Part shown: in pieces, positions 2,181-31,676 of the stretch | Layout: the number at the start of each line of letters is the position of its first letter | Numbering within the stretch: position 1 is the first letter of the stretch | Source of the DNA: a virus | Reading direction: 5' to 3' (one strand) | DNA length: 64,000 bases | IMG/VR virus record: IMGVR_UViG_3300037518_000459 | The notes under the pieces: model-generated | Seen by the model: only the letters and a program-made list of their open reading frames with translations | The model's database searches: none | Told to the model about the DNA's origin: nothing | Translations under genes and position numbers: made by a program

Positions 2181-2200
2181 ATAGCAGGGCCCGTGCCAAT
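2181..2200 (-). promoter_or_regulatory. sigma54-type -24/-12 promoter-like element (rc GATTGGCACGGGCCCTGCTATATG), leftward
   Basis: Matches TGGCACG-N4-nTGC with GG-to-GC spacing of 12; it lies upstream of the gene at 2047..2145 and its operon. Confidence 0.5.
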
Positions 2201-2270
2201 CCACGAAACGACAACGGGCGCCAAACCGCGGGCCCGGTCCGCCAATTCTGGCGAATCCGGGCCCTTGCGG

Positions 2271-2310
2271 TTTGCAACGCCGTTGCAAAATGCGGACGCA
2301 TTCCGCAACG
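2271..2310. promoter_or_regulatory. Dyad-symmetric upstream elements: TTGCAACGCCGTTGCAA and TTGCAAAATGCGGACGCATTCCGCAA
   Basis: Inverted repeats ~90-120 bp upstream of the 2181-2200 promoter, in an enhancer or operator-like position. Confidence 0.5.
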
Positions 2311-2314
2311 TCGA

Positions 2315-2668
2315 CTAGACCGGGACAGACTCCCCGGTCTGGGAATCGTAGATTGCCAGCTGGCCCGCCCGTCGTCCCGCTTCCAGGGCCGCGGCGCGAT
2401 CCTCGAAACCGCGCGAAACGTCCAGGAAATAGCGCCCGGACGCGGGATCCTTCCATCCGCCGAAGTACGCGCCATCGCGCGAAAGGGCGGGCCAGCGGGT
2501 CCGGATGAACTCGGAGAGTTCCGCTTCCGTGGGCTCCCGGTCGAACTCGGCGCCGCCCGCGTCCGATGCCAGAAACCGCGCGGGCGGGGTTTGGTAGTTC
2601 AGGGCCAGGGTAAAACCGCCATCCGCCCAAAGATCGGACGATGCGGGAATAACAACGTGCGCGCGCAA
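2315..2668 (-). CDS. Hypothetical protein, 117 aa, TTG start
   Basis: Protein-like C-terminus of ORF 2315..2875. The TTG start sits after the CCCCTAGACTGGAGCCTACC SAS, and the upstream ATG-initiated stretch has low GC3. Confidence 0.5.
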   Translation of the reverse strand: MRAHVVIPASSDLWADGGFTLALNYQTPPARFLASDAGGAEFDREPTEAELSEFIRTRWPALSRDGAYFGGWKDPASGRYFLDVSRGFEDRAAALEAGRRAGQLAIYDSQTGESVPV

Positions 2669-2741
2669 GGTAGGCTCCAGTCTAGGGGCGAAGCAAGCAA
2701 GGGCGATTGTAGCACGTTCCGGGCCCGTCAGGGAAAGCAAA

Positions 2742-2903
2742 CTATAGCCTAATCTCCTTTCCATCCGTCGAATCGGTCGGGCCTTTTGCGCGCAACCTAG
2801 CGCGCAATTTGCGAAGATCCCGGGACCATCGGGCCGCAAGGGAAAGGAGCCCGACCAGGACAAGGGCCATTGCAAACGCTAGCAGGATCAAGAATCCTTT
2901 CAT
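2742..2903 (-). CDS. Small membrane protein, 53 aa (MKGFLILLAFAMALVLVGLL...)
   Basis: Internal M of ORF 2742..2996, with a TM helix followed by a basic tail; ATGA overlap with the upstream gene. Confidence 0.5.
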   Translation of the reverse strand: MKGFLILLAFAMALVLVGLLSLAARWSRDLRKLRARLRAKGPTDSTDGKEIRL

Positions 2904-3064
2904 TCCAGGGCCCCGCTTTCCAGCAACGCGGCCGCTTGCCGACCGTACCGCCCGGGAAGGGACCAAACGATCCCGGACCGTATGAGTTCGCGCCACGCGT
3001 CCAGGACGTCCGCCGCGTCCGCTTCCGGATCTTCCACCAATTCGAGCGCTTCGATTGGTCCCAT
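2900..3064 (-). CDS. Hypothetical acidic protein, 54 aa
   Basis: Internal M of ORF 2900..3121 (MGPIEALELVEDPEA...), coupled by ATGA to the downstream gene. Confidence 0.4.
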   Translation of the reverse strand: MGPIEALELVEDPEADAADVLDAWRELIRSGIVWSLPGRYGRQAAALLESGALE

Positions 3065-3081
3065 TGCCAACCTACCCTTTC

Positions 3082-3792
3082 CTAGAAACGGTCCGCCGCG
3101 TTGTCGCGCCACCAAACCCATGTAAGGGCTTGGACGCGCGCGGCGGTCAAGCTAGGGGCCAGTTCCGGGAACGCGGCGCGAAGGGCCGCGGCCGCGTCAA
3201 CGTACGCGCGGGCCGCTTCGCGGTATCGTTTGTCGGTCAGTTTCAGGGCGGGCCCGCCCCCTGCGATCGCCCACGCGTGGCGGTCAATGCAAACCGCATC
3301 CGTTGCGCCCGCGGAAACGATCGACCGATAGAACGCGCGGACTTTCGGGCCCCCTAGCACGTCCAGGGGCGGCGCCCCGTCCAGGATCCGGGCCGCTTTC
3401 GCGCGGTTCCGACCGTATCCCGGTCCGGGAAGGATCGGGGCGCCTTGCTTCCACGCGTCCAGGATCGCGGGCGCCCATGCGGTTTGAACGTCCCAGGATA
3501 CTTGAGGGGAAAGGGCCGCAAGCGCCCCGGCCGTCGATTCGACGGACAGCCCGTAAGGGCGCCCGATCCCTGCGCAGAATCGGCGCGCGTTTTCGTACCA
3601 ATCCAGCCCGTCCCGGGCGCGGGCCGCGTCGTCCAGGGCGCGGCGCGCTACCAGTTCCACGCGCGCCGCGGCGGTTCGCGGTTCCAGGAACGGCGGGCGC
3701 GCCCGCGCGGGCGGTTCCGGATCGGCGGGCGCCGCGGGCCCGTTCGCCCAATCGGCGAGCCACCACTCATCAAGCGGGCGGTCAGGATTCAA
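3082..3792 (-). CDS. Hypothetical protein, 236 aa, TTG start
   Basis: ORF-track protein with ordinary composition. Its start is immediately after the CCCCCTGACCGGAGCCTAGCG SAS. Confidence 0.6.
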   Translation of the reverse strand: MNPDRPLDEWWLADWANGPAAPADPEPPARARPPFLEPRTAAARVELVARRALDDAARARDGLDWYENARRFCAGIGRPYGLSVESTAGALAALSPQVSWDVQTAWAPAILDAWKQGAPILPGPGYGRNRAKAARILDGAPPLDVLGGPKVRAFYRSIVSAGATDAVCIDRHAWAIAGGGPALKLTDKRYREAARAYVDAAAALRAAFPELAPSLTAARVQALTWVWWRDNAADRF

Positions 3793-3833
3793 CGCTAGGC
3801 TCCGGTCAGGGGGCGGGTTTCCGCCCCGGAGCG

Positions 3834-3869
3834 TAGCACGGGCCGTGCCAATCCAATAAATGCCAATCC
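3834..3869 (-). promoter_or_regulatory. sigma54-type -24/-12 promoter-like element (rc GATTGGCATTTATTGGATTGGCACGGCCCGTGCTACGCT), leftward
   Basis: TGGCACG-N4-GTGC with correct spacing, a duplicated GATTGGCA, directly upstream of the SAS of gene 3082..3792. Confidence 0.5.
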
Positions 3870-3899
3870 TGCGGAATCCTGCGGGATTCCTACCAGTTC

Positions 3900-4050
3900 A
3901 AGCAAGCGGCGCGCGTTGCAATTGGCAAACTGCGAATCGCAGAATGCGACCCGTCATTCTGCACGTGTCGGCGCGACACGGTGACCAGTTCCTGGCCGGT
4001 CGTGCATTTTGCACGTTTTGCAGATTTTGACAATCCTGCAAGCCAGCTGC
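3900..4050. promoter_or_regulatory. Cluster of dyad elements: TGCGAATCGCA, CAGAATGCGACCCGTCATTCTG, GTGTCGGCGCGACAC, GTGCATTTTGCAC, TTGCAG-N12-CTGCAA
   Basis: Several perfect inverted repeats 50-200 bp upstream of the 3834 promoter; the GCATTTTGC core recurs at three other sites. Confidence 0.5.
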
Positions 4051-4060
4051 CCGCGAGCGC

Positions 4061-4146
4061 GCGAGCTGCGAAACGCGAGCTGCACTTTTGCGAGCTGCAC
4101 TTTCCGAGCTGCACTTTCCGAGCTGCACTTTAGCAGCTGCACTTTC
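4061..4146. repeat. Six tandem ~14-bp iteron-like repeats (C)GAGCTGCACTTTn(n)
   Basis: Direct reading of the non-coding 383-bp gap 3793-4175. Confidence 0.8.
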
Positions 4147-4149
4147 TGC

Positions 4150-4178
4150 GCACCCCCTCTTTAGGCACCCCCTCTTTA
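4150..4178. repeat. Two copies of GCACCCCCTCTTTA overlapping the stop of gene 4176..5531
   Basis: Direct reading. Confidence 0.7.
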
Positions 4179-5531
4179 CGGCGTCCCCTTGAGGCACAGA
4201 ACGTGGACCACGGCCTCGTTGCCGTACGCCTTGGTCTGCAGCACGAACAGGCGCTCGCCGGCCGCGTCCCACGTCATGCCATTGAAGTAGCGCCGGCGGC
4301 AGACCGGGTCGAAGCCGTCGAGCGGCGACTGCCACAGCCAGTCCGGCATGATGGCTTGGACGGGCTGCACCTCCCACGGCTGGCGGATCCCCATCGCGAC
4401 TTCGCCCAGCTGGTCCGGGTCGTAGAAGTAGAGCATCGGCGTGTACGGCTCCGAGTGCCAGCCGCGGAACGCGTCGCAGCCGATCCCGTCGTCGTAGTGG
4501 TTGGGCCCGAGCCCCTTGGTCCACCCGAAGATCAGCACGCTCAGACCGTTCCGGTCGTAGGGCCACGCCATATTCCACCACCAGTCGCCCTCGGCGTTCT
4601 TGTAGCCCTCGGACCAGCCGAGGGCCCCCGTGCCAGGATAGCCGAGGATCATGCGCGCGCCGAAGTCCGAGCCCGGCGCCGCACTCAGGTCAGGCTTGAA
4701 GACCTGGAGCGTGGGGCCGAAGAGCCCTTCGAACGCGCCGGCGATCCGCTGGCGCGCGCACCCGATGACCGCGTCGGGGTCGTACTTGCCGGCCCACGCC
4801 GGCGGCACGCGCAGCAAGCGCTGGTGCGTCTTGTTCGCGTGGTGCGCGTTCTTCGTGGGGACGTTCACGCCCGCGGGGCCCGCGCGCCACGGCCCGTCCT
4901 TCCGCTGCGTGTCGAGCGACGCGTCGGTCGCAGTGAGCCCCTCGTTATCCCGCGCGACCACGTTGTAGAACTCCCAGTACGCGATCAGGAGGTCCAACCC
5001 CAGGGTCGCCATGCCCCCGAACGTCTTCGCCGGATCGCACAGGGGCGCCGTCAGCTGCGACTCCTGGAACCGCGGGCCAACCGCCTGGGACACGAGGCAC
5101 TTGGTCGGTTGGTTCTTCACCGCACTAAGGGGCAGCCCGGGGTCCGCGGGCACGGTGATCTCGGTGATGCCGCCCAGGGAGCGGATCAGCAGGCGCCCGT
5201 TCGCCTCGTCGTAGTCGAGGTCGCTGTTGTCGAACTGGCGCTGCCCAGTGCCGAAGATCGCGAGCGACGGAAGGCGGAACGTGTGGCGCCACTGGAAGTC
5301 CGAGTACGACAGGCGCCCCGCGCCGGGCGCGTCGGGGATGTTGGCCCAGACGGGGTTCACCGAGAGCACCGCGACCCAATCGCTCCAGATGCCGGCGACG
5401 ACCCAGGCGACGGACCACCAGTGCTCGTCGTACAGGCCGGGGTTCGCGAAGACGTGCTCCAGGTCGCTCCACTTGCCGGCGCCACTCACGGCTTCGGCGA
5501 CCCGGGCTAGGGACAGGGTAGTATTGGACAA
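4176..5531 (-). CDS. Hypothetical protein, 451 aa, Trp/Tyr-rich, possibly an enzyme
   Basis: Long ORF with protein-like composition; no motif recognised. Confidence 0.6.
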   Translation of the reverse strand: MSNTTLSLARVAEAVSGAGKWSDLEHVFANPGLYDEHWWSVAWVVAGIWSDWVAVLSVNPVWANIPDAPGAGRLSYSDFQWRHTFRLPSLAIFGTGQRQFDNSDLDYDEANGRLLIRSLGGITEITVPADPGLPLSAVKNQPTKCLVSQAVGPRFQESQLTAPLCDPAKTFGGMATLGLDLLIAYWEFYNVVARDNEGLTATDASLDTQRKDGPWRAGPAGVNVPTKNAHHANKTHQRLLRVPPAWAGKYDPDAVIGCARQRIAGAFEGLFGPTLQVFKPDLSAAPGSDFGARMILGYPGTGALGWSEGYKNAEGDWWWNMAWPYDRNGLSVLIFGWTKGLGPNHYDDGIGCDAFRGWHSEPYTPMLYFYDPDQLGEVAMGIRQPWEVQPVQAIMPDWLWQSPLDGFDPVCRRRYFNGMTWDAAGERLFVLQTKAYGNEAVVHVLCLKGTP

Positions 5532-5798
5532 CGGGGGCCTCCTTGAGAAACGGGGCCCCCAGTATAGCAGAAGACCGGCCCCCTCGCGGGAGCCGGCCCG
5601 GTCATTCCGGCCGGTCGTCGAGTACCTCGAACTCCCGCCCGCGGAAGATCAGAACCTCCTCTCCCGCGTCACCCATGACCCAGCAACCAGCGTGTCGAGA
5701 GTTCGGGTTGCTCTCCCACCTCAAGGCTGGGAGCACGCGACCGGCCCGAAGCCCGTGCTCGGATCCAACAGGTACGTCTCTCGTCAGCTGGATGCGCA

Positions 5799-6443
5799 CT
5801 ACAGCACCGGCTTGAAGCCCTGGATCTTGCCGCGATTGAAGACGGGCTTCAACCAGGGCCAGACGGCGAGCCGGTCGCGACCGGTGACGGAGGCGCCGCG
5901 CTGGCACACCCGGAACATGCGAGTCGTTCCGCGGGTCAACCCGTACTCGGGCCGGGCCACCGGGTTGTGCACGAGCACATAGAACGCGGCCTTCTCATCG
6001 ACCCGCCGGCCGGCCTCCGGCTCCACCATGTCGCTGACCCAGACCTCGTCGCCGTCGTGGATGACACCGATCGCGGCCTTGAGGTGCTCGTCGCCCTCGC
6101 CCAGCTTGTCGAACTTGTACTCGAAGAACCCCTTGAACTTCGGTTCCTGCTCCACGTTGATCTCCTCCTTCTCCTGAAGTGGCTGGTCGTTGACGTACAC
6201 GATGCTCTTGCCGTCTTGACCGGTGATGGTGATGTTGAAGTAGTTCGGACCGTCCACCTGGGAGGCGGCCGCCTTGACCGCCTTCGTGAGGACGCGCTCC
6301 ACGTGGCCCTGGGACGTGAAGCCCAGCGCCCTCCTCATGTCCGGGGATTTCGCGATCTCCGCAGCGATGCGATTGATCTCGGCGGGGTTGGCGTCGTCGA
6401 AGAATGGCCCGCCCACCGAAACGGTAGTGTGGATGGACTTCAT
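5799..6443 (-). CDS. Hypothetical protein, 214 aa
   Basis: Internal ATG of ORF 5799..6500 preceded by GGGGAG; the upstream leader is AT-rich. Confidence 0.55.
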   Translation of the reverse strand: MKSIHTTVSVGGPFFDDANPAEINRIAAEIAKSPDMRRALGFTSQGHVERVLTKAVKAAASQVDGPNYFNITITGQDGKSIVYVNDQPLQEKEEINVEQEPKFKGFFEYKFDKLGEGDEHLKAAIGVIHDGDEVWVSDMVEPEAGRRVDEKAAFYVLVHNPVARPEYGLTRGTTRMFRVCQRGASVTGRDRLAVWPWLKPVFNRGKIQGFKPVL

Positions 6444-6501
6444 CTCCCCTCGGCCAAGAGGATAATAAGGCTCAGCGAGAAAATACCTGTCGCCGTCCAC
6501 G

Positions 6502-6939
6502 TCACTCCCCCGCTTTCACGCGAATGAACCGCCCCGCGGCCCACTCCATGATCTTCGCGGCGGCGCCCGTGTGGTCCTCGCCGTCGAACCAAGGGAGGTC
6601 CTGGATGGACGCGGTCCACCACTCGTCGTCGTCGTCCTTCTCGACAGTCAGGCCCGGTCCGGCGAGCCGGCCACCCCTGGACGGAGCCTCGGTCCAGGCT
6701 TCCACCCTGAACGGCCCGTTGCTGATCAGGGCGTCGATCACCGCGTCGGACCCGCTGCGACCCCGCTCCAGGGTCTCGCGCAGCGCCATGCGGATGGCCG
6801 GAAGCAGCTCAACCAGTTCCTTGTACTGCTGGTCCTGCTGCTGCTCGTACTGCTGCACGTACGACCGACACCAGTCACTCACGAGGTCGAGCGTCCCCAT
6901 CACCGGCGCCTGCTGAACCTTCTTCTTGAAGATGTTCAT
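6502..6939 (-). CDS. Hypothetical protein, 145 aa
   Basis: Internal ATG (MNIFKKK) of ORF 6502..7056 with SD GGGAGG; ATGA overlap with the upstream gene. Confidence 0.5.
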   Translation of the reverse strand: MNIFKKKVQQAPVMGTLDLVSDWCRSYVQQYEQQQDQQYKELVELLPAIRMALRETLERGRSGSDAVIDALISNGPFRVEAWTEAPSRGGRLAGPGLTVEKDDDDEWWTASIQDLPWFDGEDHTGAAAKIMEWAAGRFIRVKAGE

Positions 6940-7703
6940 GCGGAACCTCCCTTGTTGACTCGCGCCAGAATCTCGTCGAAGGAGGCTGGCGCGTAGTCCC
7001 ACCCCTCGACGCTCATGTCTACCGTCGGTATCGGGGAGTGCCGTCCCCACGTCCACGGGCCGCCGACCACCGCGCCGTTCTTACAATGCGAGTGGCCGTG
7101 CAGGAGCAGGCGGGCCGACCCGCTCTGATCTACGTCCAGGAGCCTGCTGGCGTGCTTCTTCGCCGCGGCCGATCCGCCCCACGACCGCGGCCCGTAGTGG
7201 TAGAGCAGGACCCATCGCTCGCCGATCCCGACGAGCCGCGCATGCGGCGCCTCCCCGAACACCTCGCGTACCGCCGCGGTCAGCGGCTTCTCGCCGCTCC
7301 CCCTCGCGGCCTTCTGCTCCTGGTCGTGGTTCCCGCGCACGAGCAGGATCTCGCCGTTGAGCCGCGCGCGGATCCGCGCGACCTCGTCGACGCCGAGGTG
7401 CCACCACGCGAAGTCGCCGAGGTGGTACACGGTATCGCCCGGCGCGACGCGCTCGTTCCACCGCGTGACTAGCTCATCTTCCATCACCGCGACGTCGGGG
7501 ACCTTGTAGTAGTGCGTCTCCTGAAGTCCGCCCAGCTCGCCGAGCTTCTTCTTCGGGCTGACGCGGCTGTGAACACGCGCCACTTTCGCGAGGTGGTGCC
7601 CCGGCTCCAGCTCCTCCGGTAGCGCCGGCCGCCACCACGGCCGCCCGCAGTAGCCGACGATCCGCCCGTGTCCGAAGTGGTGGTCCGACGTGAACCAAAT
7701 CAT
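6936..7703 (-). CDS. Calcineurin-like metallophosphoesterase, 255 aa
   Basis: Motifs SDHHFGH, YHLGDF, VRGNHD and HGHSH match the phosphoesterase/SbcD-like signature; SD GGGAGG. Confidence 0.8.
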   Translation of the reverse strand: MIWFTSDHHFGHGRIVGYCGRPWWRPALPEELEPGHHLAKVARVHSRVSPKKKLGELGGLQETHYYKVPDVAVMEDELVTRWNERVAPGDTVYHLGDFAWWHLGVDEVARIRARLNGEILLVRGNHDQEQKAARGSGEKPLTAAVREVFGEAPHARLVGIGERWVLLYHYGPRSWGGSAAAKKHASRLLDVDQSGSARLLLHGHSHCKNGAVVGGPWTWGRHSPIPTVDMSVEGWDYAPASFDEILARVNKGGSA

Positions 7704-8419
7704 CTCGGCCTCCCTAGATACTCAGGAGCGATCTTCCCTTGCTTCGCGGCGCGCGCCGCTTCGTCCTGCGTCGGCATCCAGGCGAGTTCAGCGAGGTGCT
7801 CGATCGTTCCGGGCAGGAGGTGCCCCGGGTGACAGAGTTCGCCGAACATCATCTTGGCGTACTGGAAGTGATCGACGATCCGGTGCTCGACGACCTTGTA
7901 CGTCCACCCTTCGTGGACGACGGTCGCGTTGAACAGGTTCTGCTCGCCGAGCGTGTCGATAACATCATGCCCTCGGCACGGACCGTTCAGGAACGTGGCG
8001 GTGACGATCACGGCGTCCCCTTCGTAGGAAGAGCGGCCTTGATGGCAGCGATCCAGCCGCAGGCGTCCGACATCCCGGCACAGATCGAGTCGGTCGTCCT
8101 CCAGCCTCCGCAGCGCCTCGTGCGCCGCTTCGATGGTGATGGTGGCCGCGTCGGGCGGCACTTTTCCCTCGACGCATCCACAGGGAACGTACAGGGGGTC
8201 GTATTCTCGACGAAACCCCGGTCTCCCTGAACCCTTACACTCCAGGCAATCCGGCCAGGAGGCGCGCGCCACCGCGTCAACCACGTCTCCGATGAACTCC
8301 TCTACATCGCTTTGCCGGAGAAGAAACTCCCCCTCGCCCTCCCACGCCTCCAGGTTTATGTCGCCGTGCCGCACACAGAAGCGCGCCCTCCAGTGCCGGA
8401 TCAGTTCCTCGCGCGTCAC
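7700..8419 (-). CDS. Cys-rich hypothetical protein, 239 aa, GTG start
   Basis: The protein-like part of ORF 7700..8629 begins VTREEL after GGAGGTGGA; it carries CLECKG and CGCVEG motifs. Confidence 0.55.
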   Translation of the reverse strand: MTREELIRHWRARFCVRHGDINLEAWEGEGEFLLRQSDVEEFIGDVVDAVARASWPDCLECKGSGRPGFRREYDPLYVPCGCVEGKVPPDAATITIEAAHEALRRLEDDRLDLCRDVGRLRLDRCHQGRSSYEGDAVIVTATFLNGPCRGHDVIDTLGEQNLFNATVVHEGWTYKVVEHRIVDHFQYAKMMFGELCHPGHLLPGTIEHLAELAWMPTQDEAARAAKQGKIAPEYLGRPR

Positions 8420-8487
8420 CACTCCACCTCCCCGAACAGCGCACGCATCATGCGCAGCAGCGCCCACGTTCCGTTGCTCCAGGTCAT
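8416..8487 (-). CDS. Micro-ORF, 23 aa (MTWSNGTWALLRMMRALFGEVEW), possible coupling element
   Basis: Strong AAGGAGG SD. Its ATG overlaps the TGA of the AAA+ gene and its TGA overlaps the GTG of the downstream gene. Confidence 0.25.
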   Translation of the reverse strand: MTWSNGTWALLRMMRALFGEVEW

Positions 8488-9695
8488 GCTTCCTCCTTTG
8501 CGGCGACCAGCCGCTCTTGCGCTTCGGCCATCGAGCATCCGAGCATCTCCAATGCGAAGGCCGCGGCAGCCAAGTCATTCGACACCTCGGGGTAGAACCT
8601 CGCGTAAAGCCGTCTGAGCTGATCGGCATCCGGCTTGGCGAGGTGGATCCGAACGTCCACGCGCCCCGGGCGCACGAGCGCCGGATCCAGCTTCTCGGGG
8701 TGATTCGTCGTCATCAGGACGATGTGTCCCTCGCTGGACGTCACGCCGTCGAGGGCGTTGAGGAGTCCGCTGAAGGTCACCTTGTCCTTGCTCTTCTTCT
8801 TGCGCCCCTCGAACAGCGCGTCGACGTCCTCCATGAGGATGATCTTGTGCCCCGCCCGGGACATCAGGCTCATCAAGCCAGCGTCGCCCAGCTGATCGCG
8901 GCCGAAGTTGATCACGGCGAGGTCCATCTCCAGCTCCGTGGCTAGGGCGATCGCGAGGCTCGTCTTCCCATTGCCCGGCGGGCCGTCGAGGAGGATCCCC
9001 AGGCGCCACGGGATGCCACGCTCCCGGTACCAGTTCCGCGAGTCGAGGAACTGGCGGCACCGCCCGAGCAGCTCTTCCTTGAGGCCAGCCTTGAGCACCA
9101 CGCTGCCGATGGGCCGCGGCTCCGCGCGCTGCAGGTGGCACCAGTTCCCGTAATCGTCGCCGGAGTAGATGTCGGGCCCCGAGCCGAACCGGGCAAGGGC
9201 CTTGTCCCGCGCCGTGTCCAGGAAGGAGCGCACCGCTTCCTTGCTCCACCGCGCCGCGTTGACGTAGTACGTTTCCCTCTGCAGGAGGGAATCGAACCCG
9301 TGTTCGCCGCCCTTGGCGTTGTCGTCCCGTTGGCGATGCACGAAGATCCAGTGTCCCTCGTACCGGAAGAGGTGGCGCCCGAGCCCCGGAACCAGCCGGA
9401 TGGGCATGCGGCGCTCCCCCTCGCGCAGGTGATCCAGCCGCGTGGTGGCACTGAGGCGCCGCGCTCGCCGCGCCGCCCCGCTGCCGGCGAGCCACCGGCT
9501 GATCCAGTCGTACAGGGGATCCGGCTGCCGCACCTCCACCTCCAACGCGATCAGGTTGAGGGTCCTGTCCCACAAGCGCTTCGGCAACTCGCGTGCTTGG
9601 TGCGCGAGGTACGACAACGTGACCACGAACAGACCGCCTGTGGCGAGCTGGTTGGTGGCGGCCTGCTCTTTGACCCACGCGATGAGGTGCTCCAT
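8484..9695 (-). CDS. AAA+ ATPase, BCS1-like family, 403 aa
   Basis: Walker A GPPGNGKT and Walker B ILMEDVD in an AAA+ core. The start is taken at the internal MEHLIAW, since the upstream 95 aa look like Arg-rich frame artefact. Confidence 0.75.
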   Translation of the reverse strand: MEHLIAWVKEQAATNQLATGGLFVVTLSYLAHQARELPKRLWDRTLNLIALEVEVRQPDPLYDWISRWLAGSGAARRARRLSATTRLDHLREGERRMPIRLVPGLGRHLFRYEGHWIFVHRQRDDNAKGGEHGFDSLLQRETYYVNAARWSKEAVRSFLDTARDKALARFGSGPDIYSGDDYGNWCHLQRAEPRPIGSVVLKAGLKEELLGRCRQFLDSRNWYRERGIPWRLGILLDGPPGNGKTSLAIALATELEMDLAVINFGRDQLGDAGLMSLMSRAGHKIILMEDVDALFEGRKKKSKDKVTFSGLLNALDGVTSSEGHIVLMTTNHPEKLDPALVRPGRVDVRIHLAKPDADQLRRLYARFYPEVSNDLAAAAFALEMLGCSMAEAQERLVAAKEEA

Positions 9696-9937
9696 CACCA
9701 CGCCGCCAGCGCGAAGATGTGGGCCGCGGCAACGCCGAGCAGAGTGACCACGCCAGCGAGAATGCCGAGCATCACCCAGTCGACGCGGTCCATGAACTTC
9801 GTCCGATGCTGCCACTCGGCGCGCACCGACCAGCGCCAGCTGGCGAACGGCCGGCACCGGCTGCACGGCGCGGTGCTCGTCATCAGGTAGTTGGCACCGG
9901 GCTCGTGCCGCGTTCCGCCGCACCACTTGCAGGACAT
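9695..9937 (-). CDS. Zinc-ribbon plus C-terminal TM protein, 80 aa
   Basis: MSCKWCGG...CSRC, followed by a hydrophobic C-terminus; SD AGGAGGAGG. Confidence 0.55.
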   Translation of the reverse strand: MSCKWCGGTRHEPGANYLMTSTAPCSRCRPFASWRWSVRAEWQHRTKFMDRVDWVMLGILAGVVTLLGVAAAHIFALAAW

Positions 9938-10431
9938 CACTGGACCTCCTCCTGGGGCATGAGCAGCGCCCGCTCCCCATTGGATCCCAGGATCACGACC
10001 GGCTGCCCGGGCTCCGATGGCAGGTACACCCGAACCGTGCTCCCGTTCTTCGGGAACGCGTCGAGCGCGTCGATCAACAGCTGCGGCTCCACGCGGAAGG
10101 GGATCCCTTGGGCCTCGGCCCGCGGACCAAAGTCGGGCCACGCCTTGAGCCGCTGGGCGCCGGCCACGCGCTCACCCTGTTGCACGACGTGCCCGTTGGT
10201 TCCGACCTCGGCCCCGTGCGTGGCCTTCAGCTTCGCGGGGTCGAAGCCCGCGACGACCTCCCCTTCATGCGCCGCCGGCACCGATACGACGACGAATCCA
10301 TCCGACGCCTCCGCGCGTCCGCGCCCGATCGCGATCACCGGTGGCAGGATCCCGTTCTTCTTGGCCCGCGCGGCGAGGCGCTTGGCCACCCGCACGAAGT
10401 CCTTGGAGAGTTGGACTACCATCTCACTCAT
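9937..10431 (-). CDS. Hypothetical protein, 164 aa
   Basis: ORF-track protein with ordinary composition. Confidence 0.55.
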   Translation of the reverse strand: MSEMVVQLSKDFVRVAKRLAARAKKNGILPPVIAIGRGRAEASDGFVVVSVPAAHEGEVVAGFDPAKLKATHGAEVGTNGHVVQQGERVAGAQRLKAWPDFGPRAEAQGIPFRVEPQLLIDALDAFPKNGSTVRVYLPSEPGQPVVILGSNGERALLMPQEEVQ

Positions 10432-10810
10432 CGCGCTTCCACTCCTCGATCTGGGACGGATTCACTTCGGCGATGCCCATGTGCCGGCGCAGCTGCTCCG
10501 CCTGGACCATCGCGTCCTTCAGGGCCCGGGCGAACGCGCGGGTCGCGACGAAGTCATCTGGCTCTTCTTCTGGCGAGCGACCCCCCGCGCGCCAGTTCAC
10601 CTCGACGCGGGGCGCTCGGCCCAGCCCGGCGTCGTGCGAGGCTCGAACCTCGACCATGTCCTGCCAGAACCCATGCGGGCGGTACGCGATCTCCACGCGG
10701 TCGAAGCGTTCCCCCAGCTCCGGGCGGAACGGGAACCGGAGGGTCGACCGCGTGAACCCGCGCGGGTCGCGGCGCAGCTTGCGAGTGGGCTTGCGAGGGA
10801 GGCCCGTCAT
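10424..10810 (-). CDS. Hypothetical protein, 128 aa
   Basis: ORF track; SD GGAGG. Confidence 0.55.
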   Translation of the reverse strand: MTGLPRKPTRKLRRDPRGFTRSTLRFPFRPELGERFDRVEIAYRPHGFWQDMVEVRASHDAGLGRAPRVEVNWRAGGRSPEEEPDDFVATRAFARALKDAMVQAEQLRRHMGIAEVNPSQIEEWKRDE

Positions 10811-11151
10811 CACTTCACCTCCAGCGCACGCTCGATGTCCTTGATCCAGCTGTCCACGATCGATCGCCCCTCGGGCCAGTTGCCCGCTGCCATCGCCCGA
10901 AGACTTGTCAGCGCGGTTCTGGCCCTCCGCTGAACGTCGGCGTTGACGCGGCGGGCGATCTCGGCGCGGTAGACGGACGCCTCGTCGCGGTAGTAGTTGG
11001 CGTTGAGGGTGCCCTTCTCCAGGTCCATCGCCTCCGCGGCGGGGAGCGTCTTCTCGATGTCCAGCAGGGCCCCGTGGAGTTCCGTGTTGGTCATCACGCG
11101 GGCGTGCTCCTCGGTGGCCTCCCAGACGATGTTGCCGTTCCGGTCGCGCAT
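10810..11151 (-). CDS. Hypothetical protein, 113 aa
   Basis: Internal ATG (MRDRNGN) after GGGAGG; the N-terminal part of the ORF is Gly/Arg junk. Confidence 0.55.
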   Translation of the reverse strand: MRDRNGNIVWEATEEHARVMTNTELHGALLDIEKTLPAAEAMDLEKGTLNANYYRDEASVYRAEIARRVNADVQRRARTALTSLRAMAAGNWPEGRSIVDSWIKDIERALEVK

Positions 11152-11153
11152 GA

Positions 11154-11645
11154 CTACTTGCCTCCCAGCGCCCGAAGGCGCGCTGCGTGGGTCTTCAACT
11201 TGTTGGCCTTCAACAGGCGCCACTGCAGGGACAGTTTCCGGTTGAAGGATTCCGGCGGGAGCCAGCCCCCGGCGTTCAGCCGCATCAGCTCCTCGACCAG
11301 CGGGGTCCTCGCCGCCTCCCACTCGTCCGCGATCCGACGCGCCTCGTCCGAGGCCGGCGTCGCCACGCGCGGGACCCCACCCTGGTCCAGAACCACCGTC
11401 ACGACGCGCCCGGTTCCGTGGTTCGCGCCGCCGCACTTGCAGCCGCACTTGGGACCCGTAGCGGAGGTGCACCGGTCGTCGCACGCGCAGCGCTCCTCCA
11501 CCTTCACGAGTCGATCCACGTGCACCTCACCCATGAACCACCAGCCGGCGCGACCGCACGCCGCGCATTCCGCCTTGGCCGGCATCCGTCCCTCGGTCGC
11601 GACTACGGTCAGGCACGCCTTGCATCGGTGGAAGAACCTGTTCAT
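11154..11645 (-). CDS. Cys-rich zinc-finger protein, 163 aa
   Basis: CKAC...CAAC...CACDDRC...CGCKC clusters. The start MNRFF follows AAGGGGGC; an alternative start lies at 11678. Confidence 0.55.
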   Translation of the reverse strand: MNRFFHRCKACLTVVATEGRMPAKAECAACGRAGWWFMGEVHVDRLVKVEERCACDDRCTSATGPKCGCKCGGANHGTGRVVTVVLDQGGVPRVATPASDEARRIADEWEAARTPLVEELMRLNAGGWLPPESFNRKLSLQWRLLKANKLKTHAARLRALGGK

Positions 11646-11699
11646 CTTGGCCCCCTTGATGGTACCAGTGTAAGTCATGCCCGGAGATAATGCAACCCT

Positions 11700-11792
11700 T
11701 GGGCCAAGCAAAAGGGTGGCCATCTCTGGCCACCCCTTGCCGATCCTGACACCCTGGAGTAGCAAACTGCACGGGGGTCGTGCAGAGTGCGA
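11700..11792 (-). terminator. Two GC-rich hairpins, GGGTGGCCA-N4-TGGCCACCC and CTGCACG-N5-CGTGCAG
   Basis: Inverted repeats directly downstream of gene 11793..12071; there is no T-tract. Confidence 0.35.
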
Positions 11793-12071
11793 TCAGTCCT
11801 GGGGCGCCAGCATCCGGGCCGCGAACGCCAGGGCGCCAGCGATCAGGCCCAGGAGGTGCATGTCGACGCTGTCCGCGTCCTCGACCACCATGACCCCCGC
11901 CTTCAGGGCCACGGAGTCGCGAGCGGCCGTCAGCGCCTCATCGTAGCCGGGCTGGCCGACCGCGACGGACAGGGACAGCGCCCGCTCGGACGCGTACTCG
12001 GCCAGCTCCGCGCGGTCCTCCTCCGCGCCGATCTTCAGGTCGTTCAGGATGTCCAGAAACTCCTGCTCCAT
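11793..12071 (-). CDS. Hypothetical acidic protein, 92 aa
   Basis: ORF track. Confidence 0.55.
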   Translation of the reverse strand: MEQEFLDILNDLKIGAEEDRAELAEYASERALSLSVAVGQPGYDEALTAARDSVALKAGVMVVEDADSVDMHLLGLIAGALAFAARMLAPQD

Positions 12072-12073
12072 GT

Positions 12074-12256
12074 TCAGCTCTCCTGCGCCACGAGGACGCG
12101 GTTGTCAGCCGGCTCCGGAGAACCGGCGTGCGTGATCAGCTGAATCGCGAGCGCCCGCGCGCAGGGGCGGCACAGCCCCCGGTTTCCGAGCTGCACTACT
12201 GCGCGCCTCCGGCACGCGCAGAGCCCGCGATCCTCCTGCTTCAGCGGCTCGACCAC
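12074..12256 (-). CDS. Small Cys-rich, zinc-ribbon-like protein, 60 aa, GTG start
   Basis: C-terminal part of ORF 12074..12415, with GGAG 6 nt upstream, a CAC...CRPC motif and high GC3. Confidence 0.4.
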   Translation of the reverse strand: MVEPLKQEDRGLCACRRRAVVQLGNRGLCRPCARALAIQLITHAGSPEPADNRVLVAQES

Positions 12257-12258
12257 GG

Positions 12259-12717: not shown

Positions 12718-12750
12718 GTGGGTCTCCTTCTTTCAGGGTGATGGGGCGGA

Positions 12751-19372: not shown

Positions 19373-21797
19373 GCTTCTGCTCATCGTCGGGTGCGTCCAT
19401 CACAGTTTCCCACTCGTAGGGTCCGCCGTAATGCTCGTCCCAGTGCTCGCGGCACTTCTTCAGAGGCGGAATCACGTAGGCCCACGGGCGTGCGTAGGTC
19501 TGGTCCGTCCCGCCGATGGACAACGTCAGCGGCTCGGGCTGCTGCTTGCGAGTTGGTCCGCCGGGGATCGCTTTCTTCAGCAGCTGTCCGACCGCCGTGG
19601 AGTTGCCGCGCCGCGTGCTGGAGATGCCCCAGCCGCGGAGGTAATTAGCGTAGTCCAGCGCCAGTTCCTCGACGTGCACCAGGGGCCTCCAGCCTCCGTG
19701 CTTCGGCAGAACCGTGCCGTCCTGCAGTTTCGAGTACCACCAGCGTTCGACGGGCTTCATCGTATGGAGCTTCTGTTCCCGGAGGGCATCCGTCTTCGGC
19801 ACGTCGCGCACGTTGAACTTCGAGATGTCCAGGTTAAGCAGCAGGTACAGGAGCGCCTCCCGTCCGCCGTTGTCCATCTGCTTGCGGATCGCCTCGAAGT
19901 ATGTGGTGTCCTGCTTATGGTTGGAGGAGACGCGCAGTACGAAGAAGCGCCGCTCCTCCAGGGCCGCGGGGATCACGTGGTCGTCGTTGGACGCCATCAG
20001 GATGTGCAGGCAGTTGGGCGCCACCTCGGAGTCCACGCCCTTCGGCTCGACCATGATCGTGGGCTCCGTGACGTATGCCTTGAGCGTCGAGATGTGCCGC
20101 GGGTCCCCGGCGAAGAACGCCTCGTCAGGGAAGAGCACCGCGCAATCCCGCAGGTGCGCGTTGAACTGCCCGGTGAAGTGATGCGAGCTGGACACGTGCA
20201 CGAAGTGATGGCCCCACAGCGTGCCGAACTGGAGGATGGCCGTGCCCTTGCCGGTCCCCTGCTCGCCCTGCAGCACCACCGCGACGTGCCCGGGCTCGTA
20301 CGGAATCTGCACCGCGCGAGCCATCCACCCGAGCAGGTATTCGTAGTGCTCTTGGTTGCCACTGCAGATCGTGTTTCGTAGCAGATCGAGGTACAAGTCG
20401 CAGTCGCCCTGGACCGCGGAGCAGTTGAACCCGCGCCACAGGTTGTACGCGTTGCCCTTCACCTTGCGCCCAGGGGCGAAGACGATCGTGTCGTACTGCC
20501 GGCGAAGCGGGTGCTGCATCCACCACTTGCCGAGCGGCATCCGGATGGGCCTCCCCTTGTCGTCGGTGCCCAGGTCCACCATCTGGTTCATGTAGCGCGT
20601 CAGCACGTCTTCCTTGGTCTGCCGGCTGATGCGCCACCGTTCCAGCGACGGGTCCCAGACCTCACTGATGACCCGGCACTTGCCACCCATGTCCCCGATG
20701 ACCGCGTGCTTCTCGTTCATGTCAGCCAGCATCGGGTTCCCGTCCGGGCCCGCGGCCAGCTTGGCCTTGCCGATCTGGCGTCGCGCCTCTTCCTCCGGAC
20801 GGCGCCGCTCCAGTACGCACTCCGAGATGCCGAACCGCTCGTCCGTGATGATGGAGTACATGACGTCGTCCTCGACGCCCGCGCGCACGAGGGCAGTCAG
20901 CACCGCGAACAGGGCAGCGCTGCGATCCACCTCGTTGCTGTTCGGCTTCCGGTACTTCTGCGGCTCCTCCGGATCGTAGCCCCGGACGATGATAGCCTTG
21001 GTCCGGTTGCTGACCTCCGCCGGCAGCTCGTCGAGGGTCGAGGACACCGGCTGGATGTTGCCCGACAGCTTCACGAGGTCGTGGTAGGCCCCCGCGAGGT
21101 TCCCACCGCCGGTCGGACCGCTACCCGCCTGGACCGCGACCGCGGGGGTGAACCGGCTCAGGGGGTACACGCGGGACTCGTCCCACTCCACCACCTGCGC
21201 CAGCTGCTCGGTCCGTCCCTTCGCTCGCTTCTTCTCGTTGGGGATGTTCACGGTCCCGGGGAGGCGCATGAGGCGATCGACGTTGTGGCACTGGTCGGCA
21301 CCGAACACCAGCTCCAGCTGCTGGTTCCAGCGCTTCGCCTCCTCGGCCTTGTCCACGTCCCCGTCGATGGGGAAGGGCTCCGAGAGCCGCCAGAATCCCT
21401 GGTAGCCCCCGCCCGAGAACACGATCACCGTGGGCGCAGGGACGCCCGCCGGGAGCTTCTCGGTCAGGAGCTTGAGCGCACGCCGCTGCTCCAGCTCCAG
21501 GTCCTCGCCGGCACGCGGGTCGATGTCCACGTGCAGCCACGCGAGGGCCCGGATGTCCTGGCGCTCCGCCTTCTTCGTCAGGGGCCCGGTGACCGGGTTG
21601 ACGTGGAAGTACAGGTTGCGCGTCTCGTTCTGTTTGGCCACCCAGGCGAGCAGGTCCTTCGCGTCCGATTCCACGAACGTGCGCGTGGTGATCGCGCGCT
21701 GCTCGGCAGCGATCGCGGTCAGGACCCAGAGACCGTCCGGGTCCCATCGGCGCAGGAAGTCCAGCGCCGCCTGGGGATCAGTACGGGGGCAGGTCAT
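19362..21797 (-). CDS. Primase-helicase, 811 aa (prim-pol/primase-like N-terminal region plus D5-like SF3 helicase C-terminal region)
   Basis: Walker A GEQGTGKGT in the C-terminal NTPase and a P4/D5-like architecture. Confidence 0.8.
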   Translation of the reverse strand: MTCPRTDPQAALDFLRRWDPDGLWVLTAIAAEQRAITTRTFVESDAKDLLAWVAKQNETRNLYFHVNPVTGPLTKKAERQDIRALAWLHVDIDPRAGEDLELEQRRALKLLTEKLPAGVPAPTVIVFSGGGYQGFWRLSEPFPIDGDVDKAEEAKRWNQQLELVFGADQCHNVDRLMRLPGTVNIPNEKKRAKGRTEQLAQVVEWDESRVYPLSRFTPAVAVQAGSGPTGGGNLAGAYHDLVKLSGNIQPVSSTLDELPAEVSNRTKAIIVRGYDPEEPQKYRKPNSNEVDRSAALFAVLTALVRAGVEDDVMYSIITDERFGISECVLERRRPEEEARRQIGKAKLAAGPDGNPMLADMNEKHAVIGDMGGKCRVISEVWDPSLERWRISRQTKEDVLTRYMNQMVDLGTDDKGRPIRMPLGKWWMQHPLRRQYDTIVFAPGRKVKGNAYNLWRGFNCSAVQGDCDLYLDLLRNTICSGNQEHYEYLLGWMARAVQIPYEPGHVAVVLQGEQGTGKGTAILQFGTLWGHHFVHVSSSHHFTGQFNAHLRDCAVLFPDEAFFAGDPRHISTLKAYVTEPTIMVEPKGVDSEVAPNCLHILMASNDDHVIPAALEERRFFVLRVSSNHKQDTTYFEAIRKQMDNGGREALLYLLLNLDISKFNVRDVPKTDALREQKLHTMKPVERWWYSKLQDGTVLPKHGGWRPLVHVEELALDYANYLRGWGISSTRRGNSTAVGQLLKKAIPGGPTRKQQPEPLTLSIGGTDQTYARPWAYVIPPLKKCREHWDEHYGGPYEWETVMDAPDDEQKPFA

Positions 21798-29323: not shown

Positions 29324-29513
29324 GTGGACCTCCTGGTTCGCGTGTGAATACAACCCTATCACGGTCGCGAGGGGGTTGTCAACTCCACCACCGGTTGCCC
29401 TCTGTACCTACCTACCTCCCCGGGCATCGGCTGAGGGAGCCCGCACGGGATCCCCACCAGCTCGGGCGGGAAGTAATTGCGCAGGGGCAGAAAGTCGATC
29501 TGCTCTTCAACGT

Positions 29514-31010
29514 TCATCGGAGCCACTCCCGGAGCTGGTCCCCGGTGATCTGGGAAGCGACGTTCATCTTGGTCCGCAGGGCTCGGACGATGTGCCGGTC
29601 CACGGTCCCGGGGGCGACGATGTCGATGTACTGGACGGGGTGCTCCTGCCCGATTCGGTGAGCCCGGTCCTCGGACTGCAGGCGATTCTCCAGGTTGAAG
29701 TCGTTGGAGTAGTAGATCACCGTGGTGGCCGCGGTCAGGGTCAGCCCCGTTCCGCCTGCCGCGGGGTTCGCCACGAAGAACCGCGCGTCGCCCTCCTGGA
29801 AATGCCGGATCGCCTCGGCCCGGGCATCGGATTCCACCTTGCCGTCGTACCGCACGGCCCGCTCCCCGGACTGCGTCAGGGCGTCCATGATGATGTCGAT
29901 GTCCCGCCGGAACCGGGCCCAGATGATACCCTTGCGCTGCGCCGGCATCTCCTCGATGACCTCCATCAGAGCCCCGAGCCGCGGGTTCCCCTCCTTCAGG
30001 TCGCACGGTGACGTGCCCCACGGCCCGCGGCCGGCGGGCTCCGGATCCTGGAAGTCGTCCGAGGGCAGGTACCCGCACAGGATCTGCTGAAGCCGCAGGA
30101 GGCGCGTGATCGCCATGTCCGCGGTGACCGGCTCCCCGGAGTCGAGCCACACGATGTACTCATCGCGCAGCTGCTCGTAGATCCGGGCCTGCTCGGGGGT
30201 GGGCTCGAAGAGCCGCTCGCCGTAGAGCTTCGGCGGCAGGTTCAGCACGTCGTCCTTCGTCACGCGGGTACTGATCCCCTTCAGCATCTCCTGCAGCTGG
30301 TCCAGGCGCCGGTACGCCACCACGTGGTCGTACATGCGCCGCTGCTGGTGGTTCTCGCGGCTCTCGATGACGGCGAAGTACGACTTGAACGTCGCGAACG
30401 TGTCCAGGTGCCGCTCCCGCCAGAAGCTAGGCTCCAGGAAGCGAATCTGCGAGTAGACATCGAAGGGCCCGTTGGTCACGGGCGTCCCGGTCAGGATCCG
30501 GCGGAACGGGGCGTACTTCCCGAGCGTCAGGATGCGCTTCGTGCGCGCGGCGCCCGGGGTCTTGATGCGAGTCGACTCGTCGAGCACCAGGAGCCCCGTG
30601 CGCTTGATCAGGAAGTCCATCGCCGCCTTGTTGCCCCGCGGCGTGATCACCGCATCGTAGGACATCGTCAGGACGGCCAAGCCTTCGTGCAGCACCAGCT
30701 CCCGGAACGCTTCGGCGTGCCGCTTCGTACCAGCGCGCTTCGACTCCCAGAAGAGAGCGCGCACCGGGATCCTGTCCGGGAGGTGCGCGGGCAGCTCGTT
30801 GTCGATCCAGTTGCGGTGGACGCCGTTGGGCGCAACCACGAGCAGCGCGTCGACCTTGTCCTCGGCGTGGAGCATGGCCGCCGTGTCGATCACGAGCTTC
30901 GACTTCCCGGTGCCCATCTCCCAGAAGAGCGCGCGGACATCGTCCCCCCAATGTGCCTCCAGCTCCTCGCGCTGGTGGTCGAAGGGCCGCGTCTTGGGAA
31001 CGTAGTTCAA
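29514..31010 (-). CDS. SNF2-family helicase/ATPase, 498 aa, TTG start
   Basis: Motif I GTGKS and motif II LVLDESTRIK in the SNF2_N part, plus a helicase-C region; TTGA coupling. Confidence 0.85.
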   Translation of the reverse strand: MNYVPKTRPFDHQREELEAHWGDDVRALFWEMGTGKSKLVIDTAAMLHAEDKVDALLVVAPNGVHRNWIDNELPAHLPDRIPVRALFWESKRAGTKRHAEAFRELVLHEGLAVLTMSYDAVITPRGNKAAMDFLIKRTGLLVLDESTRIKTPGAARTKRILTLGKYAPFRRILTGTPVTNGPFDVYSQIRFLEPSFWRERHLDTFATFKSYFAVIESRENHQQRRMYDHVVAYRRLDQLQEMLKGISTRVTKDDVLNLPPKLYGERLFEPTPEQARIYEQLRDEYIVWLDSGEPVTADMAITRLLRLQQILCGYLPSDDFQDPEPAGRGPWGTSPCDLKEGNPRLGALMEVIEEMPAQRKGIIWARFRRDIDIIMDALTQSGERAVRYDGKVESDARAEAIRHFQEGDARFFVANPAAGGTGLTLTAATTVIYYSNDFNLENRLQSEDRAHRIGQEHPVQYIDIVAPGTVDRHIVRALRTKMNVASQITGDQLREWLR

Positions 31011-31474
31011 CTCCGGACCCCCATGCGGTTCTTCTTCGTCTCGGTGGCGCGGCGCAGCGCGACGAGTGCCTCGGAAATCTGGTCAATCGGTTGCTCCACG
31101 CACACGCTGTGCACGGTTCCGTCACCCTCGATGTCGCTCCTACTGCGGTCCGTCCACTCGGCGAAGACGACGTGCAGCAACTCGTGCACCAAGGTCGTCT
31201 CCATGTCGTACCACAACCGAGGTTCCTCGGTTCGATGGTCCCGGGGATCCAAGAGGTGAACGGTAGCAGCGCGCCGAGAAGCCAGCCACGTAGCGGCGCC
31301 CTGGATGTGGTCCTGCGGAAGATCGGGGGCCCTGGTGATCTTCAGGTTGATCTTCCATGCCTGGAGCCCAAGGCGCGGGACCCAGTAGTCCAGGAGCTGC
31401 TCCAGCTCCTCACCGGTGAGGTAGACGTTGATCGGATCGTGCTCGGGCGGGTCGAAGTGCTGGATCAGAGCCAA
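31007..31474 (-). CDS. HExxH motif (putative zinc metallopeptidase-like) protein, 155 aa, TTG start
   Basis: LVHELLHVVF; SD AGGAGG. Confidence 0.5.
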   Translation of the reverse strand: MALIQHFDPPEHDPINVYLTGEELEQLLDYWVPRLGLQAWKINLKITRAPDLPQDHIQGAATWLASRRAATVHLLDPRDHRTEEPRLWYDMETTLVHELLHVVFAEWTDRSRSDIEGDGTVHSVCVEQPIDQISEALVALRRATETKKNRMGVRS

Positions 31475-31566
31475 CCGGGTCCTCCTGGACTAGGGTTGCC
31501 TGCGCCGGGCGGGGGCGGGGCGGATGCCCCCGAACCCGGCTGGAGAGCCGAGTCTAGCACCGCCCC

Positions 31567-31607
31567 TGCGCGGAATGCAACCCCCTAGTTCGCATTTTGC
31601 GCGCGTC
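31567..31607. promoter_or_regulatory. Dyad upstream element GCGCGGAATGC-N11-GCATTTTGCGCGC
   Basis: Lies 50-90 bp upstream of the 31655 promoter and shares CGCATTTTGCG (reverse complement of CGCAAAATGCG at 2283) and GGAATGC cores. Confidence 0.45.
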
Positions 31608-31654
31608 GGTGTTCCGGAGCCCAGGTAGATGCCAAGATTGGCAATGGTTCTCGT

Positions 31655-31676
31655 TGGCACGGGTCGTGCTATACTC
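31655..31676 (+). promoter_or_regulatory. sigma54-type -24/-12 promoter-like element TTGGCACGGGTCGTGCTATACT, rightward, preceded by GATTGGCA
   Basis: TGGCACG-N4-GTGC with GG/GC spacing of 12; it lies ~27 nt upstream of the GAAGGAGG-GTG start of the plus-strand cassette. Confidence 0.5.

Follow-up and report, generated by a model that had tools for sequence, protein, structure and literature searches.

Four candidate sigma-54-dependent promoters with shared upstream dyads in the genome of an uncultured phage

The closed complex that the sigma-54 (RpoN) holoenzyme forms at a promoter is unable to open unaided, and the promoter stays silent until an ATP-driven activator fires. Promoters of this kind are rare but not unprecedented in phages, the one precedent with experimental proof being the siphophage YuA, whose promoters are reportedly active on a reporter plasmid in uninfected cells, cease to work when rpoN is mutated, and govern genes for interaction with the host. 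The YuA elements are described as rpoN-dependent and of the -24/-12 type (Ceyssens et al., 2008, as cited in PMC10914365; NC_010116), and the NC_010116 record assigns a -24/-12 consensus to three promoter-trap fragments. Our search of the literature retrieved no phage sigma-54 promoter set besides that of YuA. Among bacterial systems, sigma-54 and RtcR control the rtcBA RNA-repair operon of E. coli and Salmonella (PMC9879122), and the sigma-54 activator LuxO has its site, TTGCAWWWTGCAA, at -89 to -120 of the qrr promoters (PMC11443567, PMC10162802). Here we describe four -24/-12 promoter-like elements (sites 1 to 4) with upstream dyads in a 64,000-nucleotide (nt) stretch of phage DNA, IMG/VR record IMGVR_UViG_3300037518_000459, hereafter the window. 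The phage has a circular genome of 66,140 bp, one ENA contig joining both window ends, so that 2,140 nt lie outside the window.

The motif TGGCACGG-N3-(C/G)TGC, which equals TGGCACG-N4-STGC, had exactly four matches against 0.05 expected, and none of 100 shuffles reached four (Table 1). A sequence-only reading of the window, which had first noticed the elements and interpreted them as sigma-54 promoters, was right about the number of copies but miscounted the spacing by one base, and the string as it wrote it (TTGGCACGG-N4-STGC) has no match. The block common to the four sites is (G)ATTGGCACGG-N3-STGC(T/A), in which the distance between the GG and GC doublets is canonical for a -24/-12 promoter, as that reading held. 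All four sites are intergenic, in a genome with an intergenic share of 6.5%, and all are oriented with the next gene; this includes the lone plus-strand cassette in a window where nearly all genes lie on the minus strand. At sites 1, 2, and 4, the predicted start of transcription lies 22-32 nt ahead of a ribosome-binding site and start codon. Site 1 heads the gene of a membrane peptide of 32 amino acids (aa) and four more genes, site 2 heads the DUF7178 gene, and site 4 heads the opposite-strand cassette. Site 3 lies after the primase gene and has a leader of 222 nt ahead of an 88-aa gene and the RtcB operon.

We then scanned both strands of the 66,140-bp genome with a 16-column sigma-54 matrix derived from the published consensus and independent of these sites. 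The four sites ranked first to fourth genome-wide, with scores of 15.2-17.2 bits, and at a threshold of at least 14 bits, these four matches compare with 0.77 in Markov simulations. The plain consensus TGGCAC-N5-TTGC with at most one mismatch was not enriched (seven matches versus 3.6 expected), so it is the quality of the four sites and their placement that give the case its strength, the enrichment being visible only by matrix or with G at -20. Measured against the extended consensus YTGGCACGR-N3-TTGCW, the window sites are good matches and stand above genomic background by matrix, but the T at -15 is never present. The fifth-ranking match, TGGCCCAAGGGTTGCA at 11691-11706 (12.8 bits), is also intergenic; it was not counted because it lies 13 nt from an ATG and abuts a terminator hairpin. 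In that gap (11679-11792, minus strand), an intrinsic-terminator-like hairpin, AAGGGGTGGCCA...TGGCCACCCTTTTGC, is directly followed by TGGCCCAAGGGTTGCA. A possible weak fifth member of the set, upstream of a 117-aa gene, scored far lower (Table 1) and has a GCAATTTGC dyad of its own at 2804-2812.

The window phage is a siphophage like YuA, shares its broad replication-module lineage (the primases are about 48% identical), and also has no RNA polymerase of its own; it is predicted to use host sigma-54 promoters beside sigma-70 promoters, as YuA does. The two differ in that the YuA fragments lie in the structural region, and no shared upstream dyad family is known to have been described for YuA. 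Furthermore, no plus-strand site of YuA exceeds 13.3 bits, the orthologous gaps contain none, and the sites of the window are much nearer to the consensus. We rejected homology of the four sites to the YuA promoters, with which neither sequence nor position corresponds, and also homology to a 28-bp repeat of that phage.

Table 1. Positions and sequences of the candidate promoters, upstream dyads, and associated features. Positions are those of the window; bits refer to the sigma-54 matrix.
Feature	Position	Strand	Sequence	Bits	Remarks
Site 1 core	2183-2198	-	TGGCACGGGCCCTGCT	15.2	Motif match 2184-2198; predicted start ~2172; 27-nt leader; ATG 2145
Site 2 core	3835-3850	-	TGGCACGGCCCGTGCT	15.2	Motif match 3836-3850; predicted start ~3824; 32-nt leader; TTG 3792 (DUF7178 gene)
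Site 3 core	19267-19282	-	TGGCACGGGAAGTGCA	17.2	Motif match 19268-19282; best of genome; predicted start ~19256
Site 4 core	31655-31670	+	TGGCACGGGTCGTGCT	16.2	Motif match 31655-31669; predicted start ~31681; 22-nt leader; GTG 31703
Site 1 ortholog, L146			TGGCACCGATCCTGCT	15.3	
Site 3 ortholog, L141			TGGCATATCCTATGCA	13.7	
Site 4 ortholog, L142			TGGCATGGGCCGTGCT	13.9	
Site 4 ortholog, L144			TGGCACGAAGCCTGCA	17.3	
Site 1 dyads	2265-2295		CCGCATTTTGCAA (2283-2295), TTGCAACGGCGTTGCAA (2272-2288), TTGCGGTTTGCAA (2265-2277)		TTGCAACGGCGTTGCAA is a palindrome
Site 2 dyads	3916-4029		GTGCATTTTGCAC (4002-4014), CGCATTCTGCG (3938-3948), CGCAGTTTGCC (3924-3934), TTGCCAATTGCAA (3916-3928)		
Site 3 dyads	19338-19368		TCGCAATTTGCAA (19338-19350), CGCATAATGCC (19358-19368)		67 and 86 nt upstream of TGG
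Site 4 dyad	31591-31601		CGCATTTTGCG		Starts 64 nt upstream of TGG
Possible weak fifth member	2711-2726	-	GGGCCCGGAACGTGCT	7.5	Followed by ACAAT (TGCTACAAT, extended -10-like)
Extra box	3861-3867	-	ATTGGCA		15 nt upstream of site 2 box
Similar extra box	31637-31643	+			Upstream of site 4
Sigma-70-type promoter	19136-19165	-	TTGACA-N18-TAGGAT		Within site 3 leader
Sigma-70-type promoter, divergent, replication module	31551-31580	-	TTGCAT-N18-TAGACT		TGC before -10; kept in L142 and L144
Structured leader RNA	19172-19245	-			Downstream of site 3; conserved in L141
Start of unit behind site 3	16869-19034	-			88-, 103-, and 115-aa proteins, RtcB RNA ligase (16869-18119)
Cassette behind site 4	31703-32730	+			89-aa and 53-aa open reading frames, transfer-messenger RNA (tmRNA) tRNA-like domain (32141-32225), 198-aa open reading frame

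The upstream elements that the sequence-only reading described as shared proved to consist of words nearly confined to the four upstream regions. All four genome copies of TTGCAACG lie upstream of sites 1, 2, and 3, and all three copies of GCATTTTGC lie upstream of sites 1, 2, and 4. The common dyad core, CGCA-N3-TGCR, starts 64-172 nt upstream of the TGG of the -24 box. The related word GCAWWWTGC occurs six times against 0.47 expected, with one or two copies upstream of each site; five of the six start 62-161 nt upstream of the four boxes, while the sixth (2804-2812) precedes the weak fifth box by 78 nt. At site 1, the CGCATTTTGCA word begins 96 nt upstream of TGG and the cluster reaches to 67 nt. 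The dyads of site 2 start 78 to 172 nt upstream of TGG, and GTGCATTTTGCAC sits inside three tandem TGCAAAAYG units (4005-4029). At site 3, CGCATAATGCC overlaps the primase stop codon. The position of the site 4 dyad is occupied by CGCATCCTGCA in relative L144 and by CACATCCTGCA in relative L142, and the gap between dyad and box is 53-54 nt in the window and in both relatives, the intervening sequence having diverged. The stretch 31567-31607, which had been taken for an enhancer throughout, can be one only in part: GGAATGCAACCCCC within it is the -35 element (TTGCAT) of the divergent sigma-70-type promoter of the replication module.

In their layout, these regions resemble the LuxO-dependent qrr promoters of Vibrionaceae, in which one or two 13-bp dyads (TTGCAWWWTGCAA) lie upstream of a -24/-12 promoter. 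The phage dyads share 10-12 of the 13 positions of that sequence and are found at similar distances; TCGCAATTTGCAA of site 3 fits at 12 of 13. A search for TTGCAWWWTGCAA with at most two mismatches returned five matches in the window versus 0.51 expected, all of them upstream of sites 1-3. The outer bases, on the other hand, are mostly CGCA/TGCG or GTGCA/TGCAC in the phage and TTGCA/TGCAA in LuxO sites, the central triplets of the relatives are non-W (as in CGCATCCTGCA), and the phage has a guanine-plus-cytosine (GC) content of 66%, unlike Vibrio. We thus regard the likeness as a possible hint at the kind of activator involved and do not claim to have identified it, and the resemblance may extend only to a half-site common to the NtrC family. 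Farther out, 230-330 nt upstream of site 2 (4076-4178, minus strand), there are tandem arrays of five GAAAGTGCAGCTCG and two TAAAGAGGGGGTGC units, both of which are kept in relative L145 and which may be iterons or protein-binding arrays. A word of these arrays, AAGTGCAGCT, is also the -12 half of site 3.

Having located the sites, we looked for their orthologs in relatives at 62-80% protein identity, whose contigs were fetched after homolog searches with the primase, the SNF2 helicase, and DUF7178. In L141, L142, L144, and L146, the locus-wide best matrix match on either strand fell in the orthologous gap and in the orthologous orientation (Table 1), so that sites 1, 3, and 4 are each represented in at least one relative. 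Alignment of the four window sites and four orthologs revealed as invariant TGGCA (-26 to -22), TGC (-14 to -12), and the seven bases' distance between them. Position -21 is C or T and position -11 is A or T, choices that agree with the sigma-54 consensus, and -20 is mostly G. By contrast, the GAT prefix, the GCAC/GTGC dyad, the TATACT-like hexamer, and the bases between the boxes vary, all seven inter-box bases being replaced in L141. As read from this alignment, the pattern fits a sigma-54 promoter, and not a sigma-70 -10 element or a symmetric operator. Judged by the orthologs of sites 1, 3, and 4, purifying selection acts on the two boxes and not on the flanks. The more distant L147, YuA, MW2, Epa5, Pam3, and IMG/VR relative L001 carry no comparable sites, the strain variants L003-L008 are identical in the region of site 3 and hence uninformative, and no relative came out of a metagenome scan with the primase. 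Taken together, motif, placement, and conservation make it likely that the four elements are sigma-54-dependent promoters with putative upstream activator sites. The pattern, its placement, its enrichment, and its conservation in relatives are seen directly in the sequences, whereas binding of sigma-54 and of an activator, dependence on a host signal, and the identity of the host are inferred from them. The interpretation given in the sequence-only reading is thus the best supported, and the comparative data on orthologs strengthen it.

The main alternative is that the sites are sigma-70 promoters of the extended -10 type (TGC-TAnnnT), in which the spacer would contain TTGGCACGG as an operator or activator box, the target of a DNA-binding protein from phage or host that times the units, and the likeness to sigma-54 promoters would be coincidental. 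The start of transcription is predicted to be the same in both cases, so mapping of start sites would not discriminate between them. A number of observations weigh against sigma-54, several of them in favor of this alternative. Sites 1, 2, and 4 are also readable as TGn-TAnnn(T), with usable hexamers at site 4 (TATACT) and site 2 (TACGCT), but the hexamers are poor at site 3 (AGCTAC) and at site 1 (TATATG, the final T absent). The word TGCTAnAnT, all five copies of which are intergenic, marks three further promoters at gene starts (31551-31559, 5561-5569, and 2706-2714) that have no good -24 box. The ortholog of site 2 in L145 is degenerate (CGGCCCGATTCCTGCT, 8.5 bits): it retains TGCTAGGCT and has gained a TTGACG -35 element, and the TGGCAC box is displaced, a TTGGCACG box lying about 30 nt upstream of TGCTAGGCT. 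Extra boxes without a -12 partner occur upstream of sites 2 and 4 (Table 1), where ATTGGCA belongs to a set of six genome copies, all within the four regulatory regions, and GCAC-N5-GTGC within the sites forms a partial dyad. Position -15 is C, G, or A in all eight sites and never the consensus T. The close relatives lack strict GCAWWWTGC and carry variants (CGCATCCTGCA, GTGCAAGTTTTGCAC), and no IHF consensus was found between dyads and boxes. Finally, the frequencies of the matrix are approximate, and a proteobacterial host is no more than probable.

The orthologs speak against the extended -10 alternative. No hexamer is present in those of L144 (TGCAATGAAAG) and L141 (TGCAGTAGGG), though TGGCA-N7-TGC is kept in both, and neither the GAT prefix nor the dyad is conserved. 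Moreover, it is very unlikely that an operator would by chance match 11-13 positions of the sigma-54 consensus, with exact spacing, at eight independent sites. We therefore consider extended -10 promoters an unlikely explanation of the four sites.

Promoters of the sigma-70 type are also predicted in this genome. The sequence TTGACAA-N17-TAGRRT was found in four copies, at 62901-62930, 29353-29382, and 19136-19165 (all on the minus strand) and at about 7290-7320 of L010, with TGT following in three of the four, and these probably represent the chief class of promoter in this phage. The sequence-only reading had placed early and accessory transcription under sigma-54. This proposal is supported for accessory modules, which the four sites would drive, but not for early transcription in general; promoters of the sigma-70 type were predicted for the replication module and for further blocks.

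A scan of IMG/VR brought up a further observation that counts against sigma-54, since the same 17-22 nt box forms an arm of a long palindrome in an unrelated group of low-GC phages. These are uncultured phages (contigs L055, L076, L077, L082, L083, L091, L108, L113, and L125; 40-45% GC) with about 30 intergenic copies of TTGGCACGG-N3-GTGCAGC...CCGTGCCAA. The first 22 nt of the palindrome are nearly identical to site 3 of the window, and in many cases GTATGCATTTTGCATAC comes after it, ahead of TTGACT-N17-(C/T)A(T/G)ACT. In the fetched stretches, these contigs share no protein with the window phage, and they had no cultured-phage match. One could accordingly suppose that the four sites are not promoters at all but a repeated palindrome or hairpin between genes, for example a terminator, processing site, or mobile repeat. 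In the low-GC contigs, GATTGGCACGG-N3-GTGCA is indeed one arm of TTGGCACGG...CCGTGCCAA hairpins, which occur on both strands with flanking runs of T and A, and consensus sigma-70 promoters follow 60-90 nt later. However, none of the four window sites has the CCGTGCCAA partner, all four are strictly gene-oriented, with three lying 22-32 nt from a start codon, and the orthologs keep two short boxes, not a stem. A non-promoter repeat is thus very improbable.

The motif might also be read through a factor of the phage, which could resemble a sigma protein or be an activator by which host polymerase is redirected. Comparable cases would be the MotA box of T4 middle promoters and the YuA 28-bp repeat, which is annotated as requiring a phage cofactor. 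The latter is described as promoter-like and located in the early/middle region, with one copy just past the primase gene (PMC10914365), which is the genomic position of site 3 in the window, and many proteins of the window phage have no known function. As in T4 and YuA, a conserved box precedes a TAnnnT-like hexamer and is repeated at the heads of gene blocks. Unlike in those promoters, the box is a sigma-54 -24 element in sequence, it lies 10 nt and not 12-17 nt from the hexamer, and the hexamer is not conserved among orthologs. The YuA repeat, CTTTACTTCTTCGG-N7-CACTATACT, shares no sequence similarity with the motif, and apart from one small helix-turn-helix (HTH) protein, no sigma-like or activator domain was recorded among the called genes. 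Conservation falls precisely on the positions of the host sigma-54 consensus, and there is no reason for a phage-specific factor to imitate it. There is, in our judgment, only a slim chance that such a factor reads the sites.

If the four elements are sigma-54 promoters, they would be read by host RNA polymerase with RpoN through the -24 TGGCAC and -12 TGC boxes at canonical spacing. Given that a sigma-54 closed complex cannot open by itself, the dyads 60-170 nt upstream, with their CGCA-N3-TGCR core and, in many cases, GCAWWWTGC, are likely sites of an enhancer-binding ATPase of the NtrC family. The absence of a GAFTGA-type activator, reported for the window, extends to the whole 66-kb genome, in which no GAFTGA-like motif was found in six frames, and the called phage genes have no match to PF00158, the sigma-54-interaction domain. 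Because the phage encodes no activator, one from the host would be required. The outcome would be a small phage regulon that follows the activity state of this host protein and comprises the RtcB RNA-ligase operon, the DUF7178 block, the small-protein block, and the plus-strand cassette with its miniature tmRNA. We can only tentatively entertain the further possibility that these accessory and counter-defense modules are wired, clade-wide, to one host NtrC-family protein with LuxO-like DNA specificity and are gated by its signal. In that event, they would fire only under a host signal such as cell density, stress, or RNA damage, and phages across a clade of uncultured relatives would be listening in on host signaling by means of enhancer-dependent transcription.

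The nature of the host was approached from two sides, both of which back the proposal of a Gram-negative rather than an actinobacterial host. Related phages have Pseudomonas, Bordetella, Achromobacter, Xanthomonas, Vibrio, and Salmonella as hosts. For the tmRNA-like domain in the site 4 cassette, its 3' end of 31 nt was matched exactly in 29 of 185,579 species genomes, which are without exception Gammaproteobacteria or Pseudomonadota bins, plus Salinisphaera. To our knowledge, rpoN is near-universal in proteobacteria, and actinobacteria and cyanobacteria lack it; relative Pam3, which infects a cyanobacterium, has no such sites. As sigma-54 sites would exclude actinobacteria and cyanobacteria, and as they can be found in metagenomic phages, they may serve as a clue to the host.

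Gene blocks behind such promoters would have their control handed to a host signaling protein. This raises the question of how the accessory genes of a lytic-type phage, some of them for RNA repair and one perhaps for a trans-translation decoy, are coupled to the physiology of the host. The near-consensus promoters, the shared family of putative activator sites, and the orthologs of three of the four sites provide clean material for testing. The unit behind site 3 recalls the RtcR-controlled rtcBA operon in that an RtcB RNA ligase gene lies behind a sigma-54-type promoter. It differs in that RtcB is the fourth gene of the unit, neither rtcR nor rtcA is present, and the unit also has a sigma-70-type promoter. 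Ahead of this RtcB-containing operon is the structured leader RNA (Table 1), which is predicted to adopt a multi-branch fold and a hairpin; in a two-sequence comparison between the window and L141, 7 of the 23 predicted pairs are compensatory. The leader had no Rfam match, and its single-sequence z-score was not significant.

The cassette behind site 4 encodes an 85-nt RNA (32141-32225, plus strand) that matched the Rfam tmRNA model with 69.9 bits against a gathering score of 47. It consists of the tRNA-like domain only, with both acceptor strands including G3:U70, the T arm, and the CCA end, and a 27-nt insert takes the place of the 314-nt mRNA-like and pseudoknot part. Rfam searches found no tmRNA-like gene in relatives L141, L142, and L144. 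By its structure, this miniature tmRNA could be a decoy of SmpB or alanyl-tRNA synthetase. Together with RtcB, it suggests a theme of RNA repair or translation rescue, perhaps aimed at anticodon-nuclease defenses.

In the direction of transcription, small early genes are followed by terminase, head, and tail genes, the short opposite-strand cassette, and the replication module (SNF2 helicase, PIF1-like helicase, DNA polymerase A, HTH protein, and primase), and then by the RtcB-containing block, a 451-aa protein, the DUF7178 block, and the small-protein block. At about 48% identity, the primase resembles those of Pseudomonas phages PaMx11, Ab18, and Epa5, Bordetella phages MW2, FP1, and CN1, and Pseudanabaena phage Pam3. 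Metagenomic contigs of about 66 kb from Logan SRR12683097, JGI 3300037482, and other sources carry exact protein matches to the window. At the DNA level, a single 128-nt match to deposited phages was found in window positions 1-20000, in the RtcB gene, and none in positions 20000-44000.

Within the 2.1 kb of the genome outside the window, positions 6440-6760 of L010 are non-coding and AT-richer, a hub in which TTCTTAACC / GGTTAAGGAGG is present about ten times, in both orientations. These are followed by TTGACT-N19-TATACT, which heads the early gene array, and the hub may be a replication origin or the main early control region. At the start of the window, there are tandem 27-nt units (positions 1-70, 2.6 copies), each an inverted repeat, CCCTGTGTCGAATGGACACAGGG, and six tandem 15-nt units (104-194), both adjoining a stretch of 72.8% GC (1-2000).

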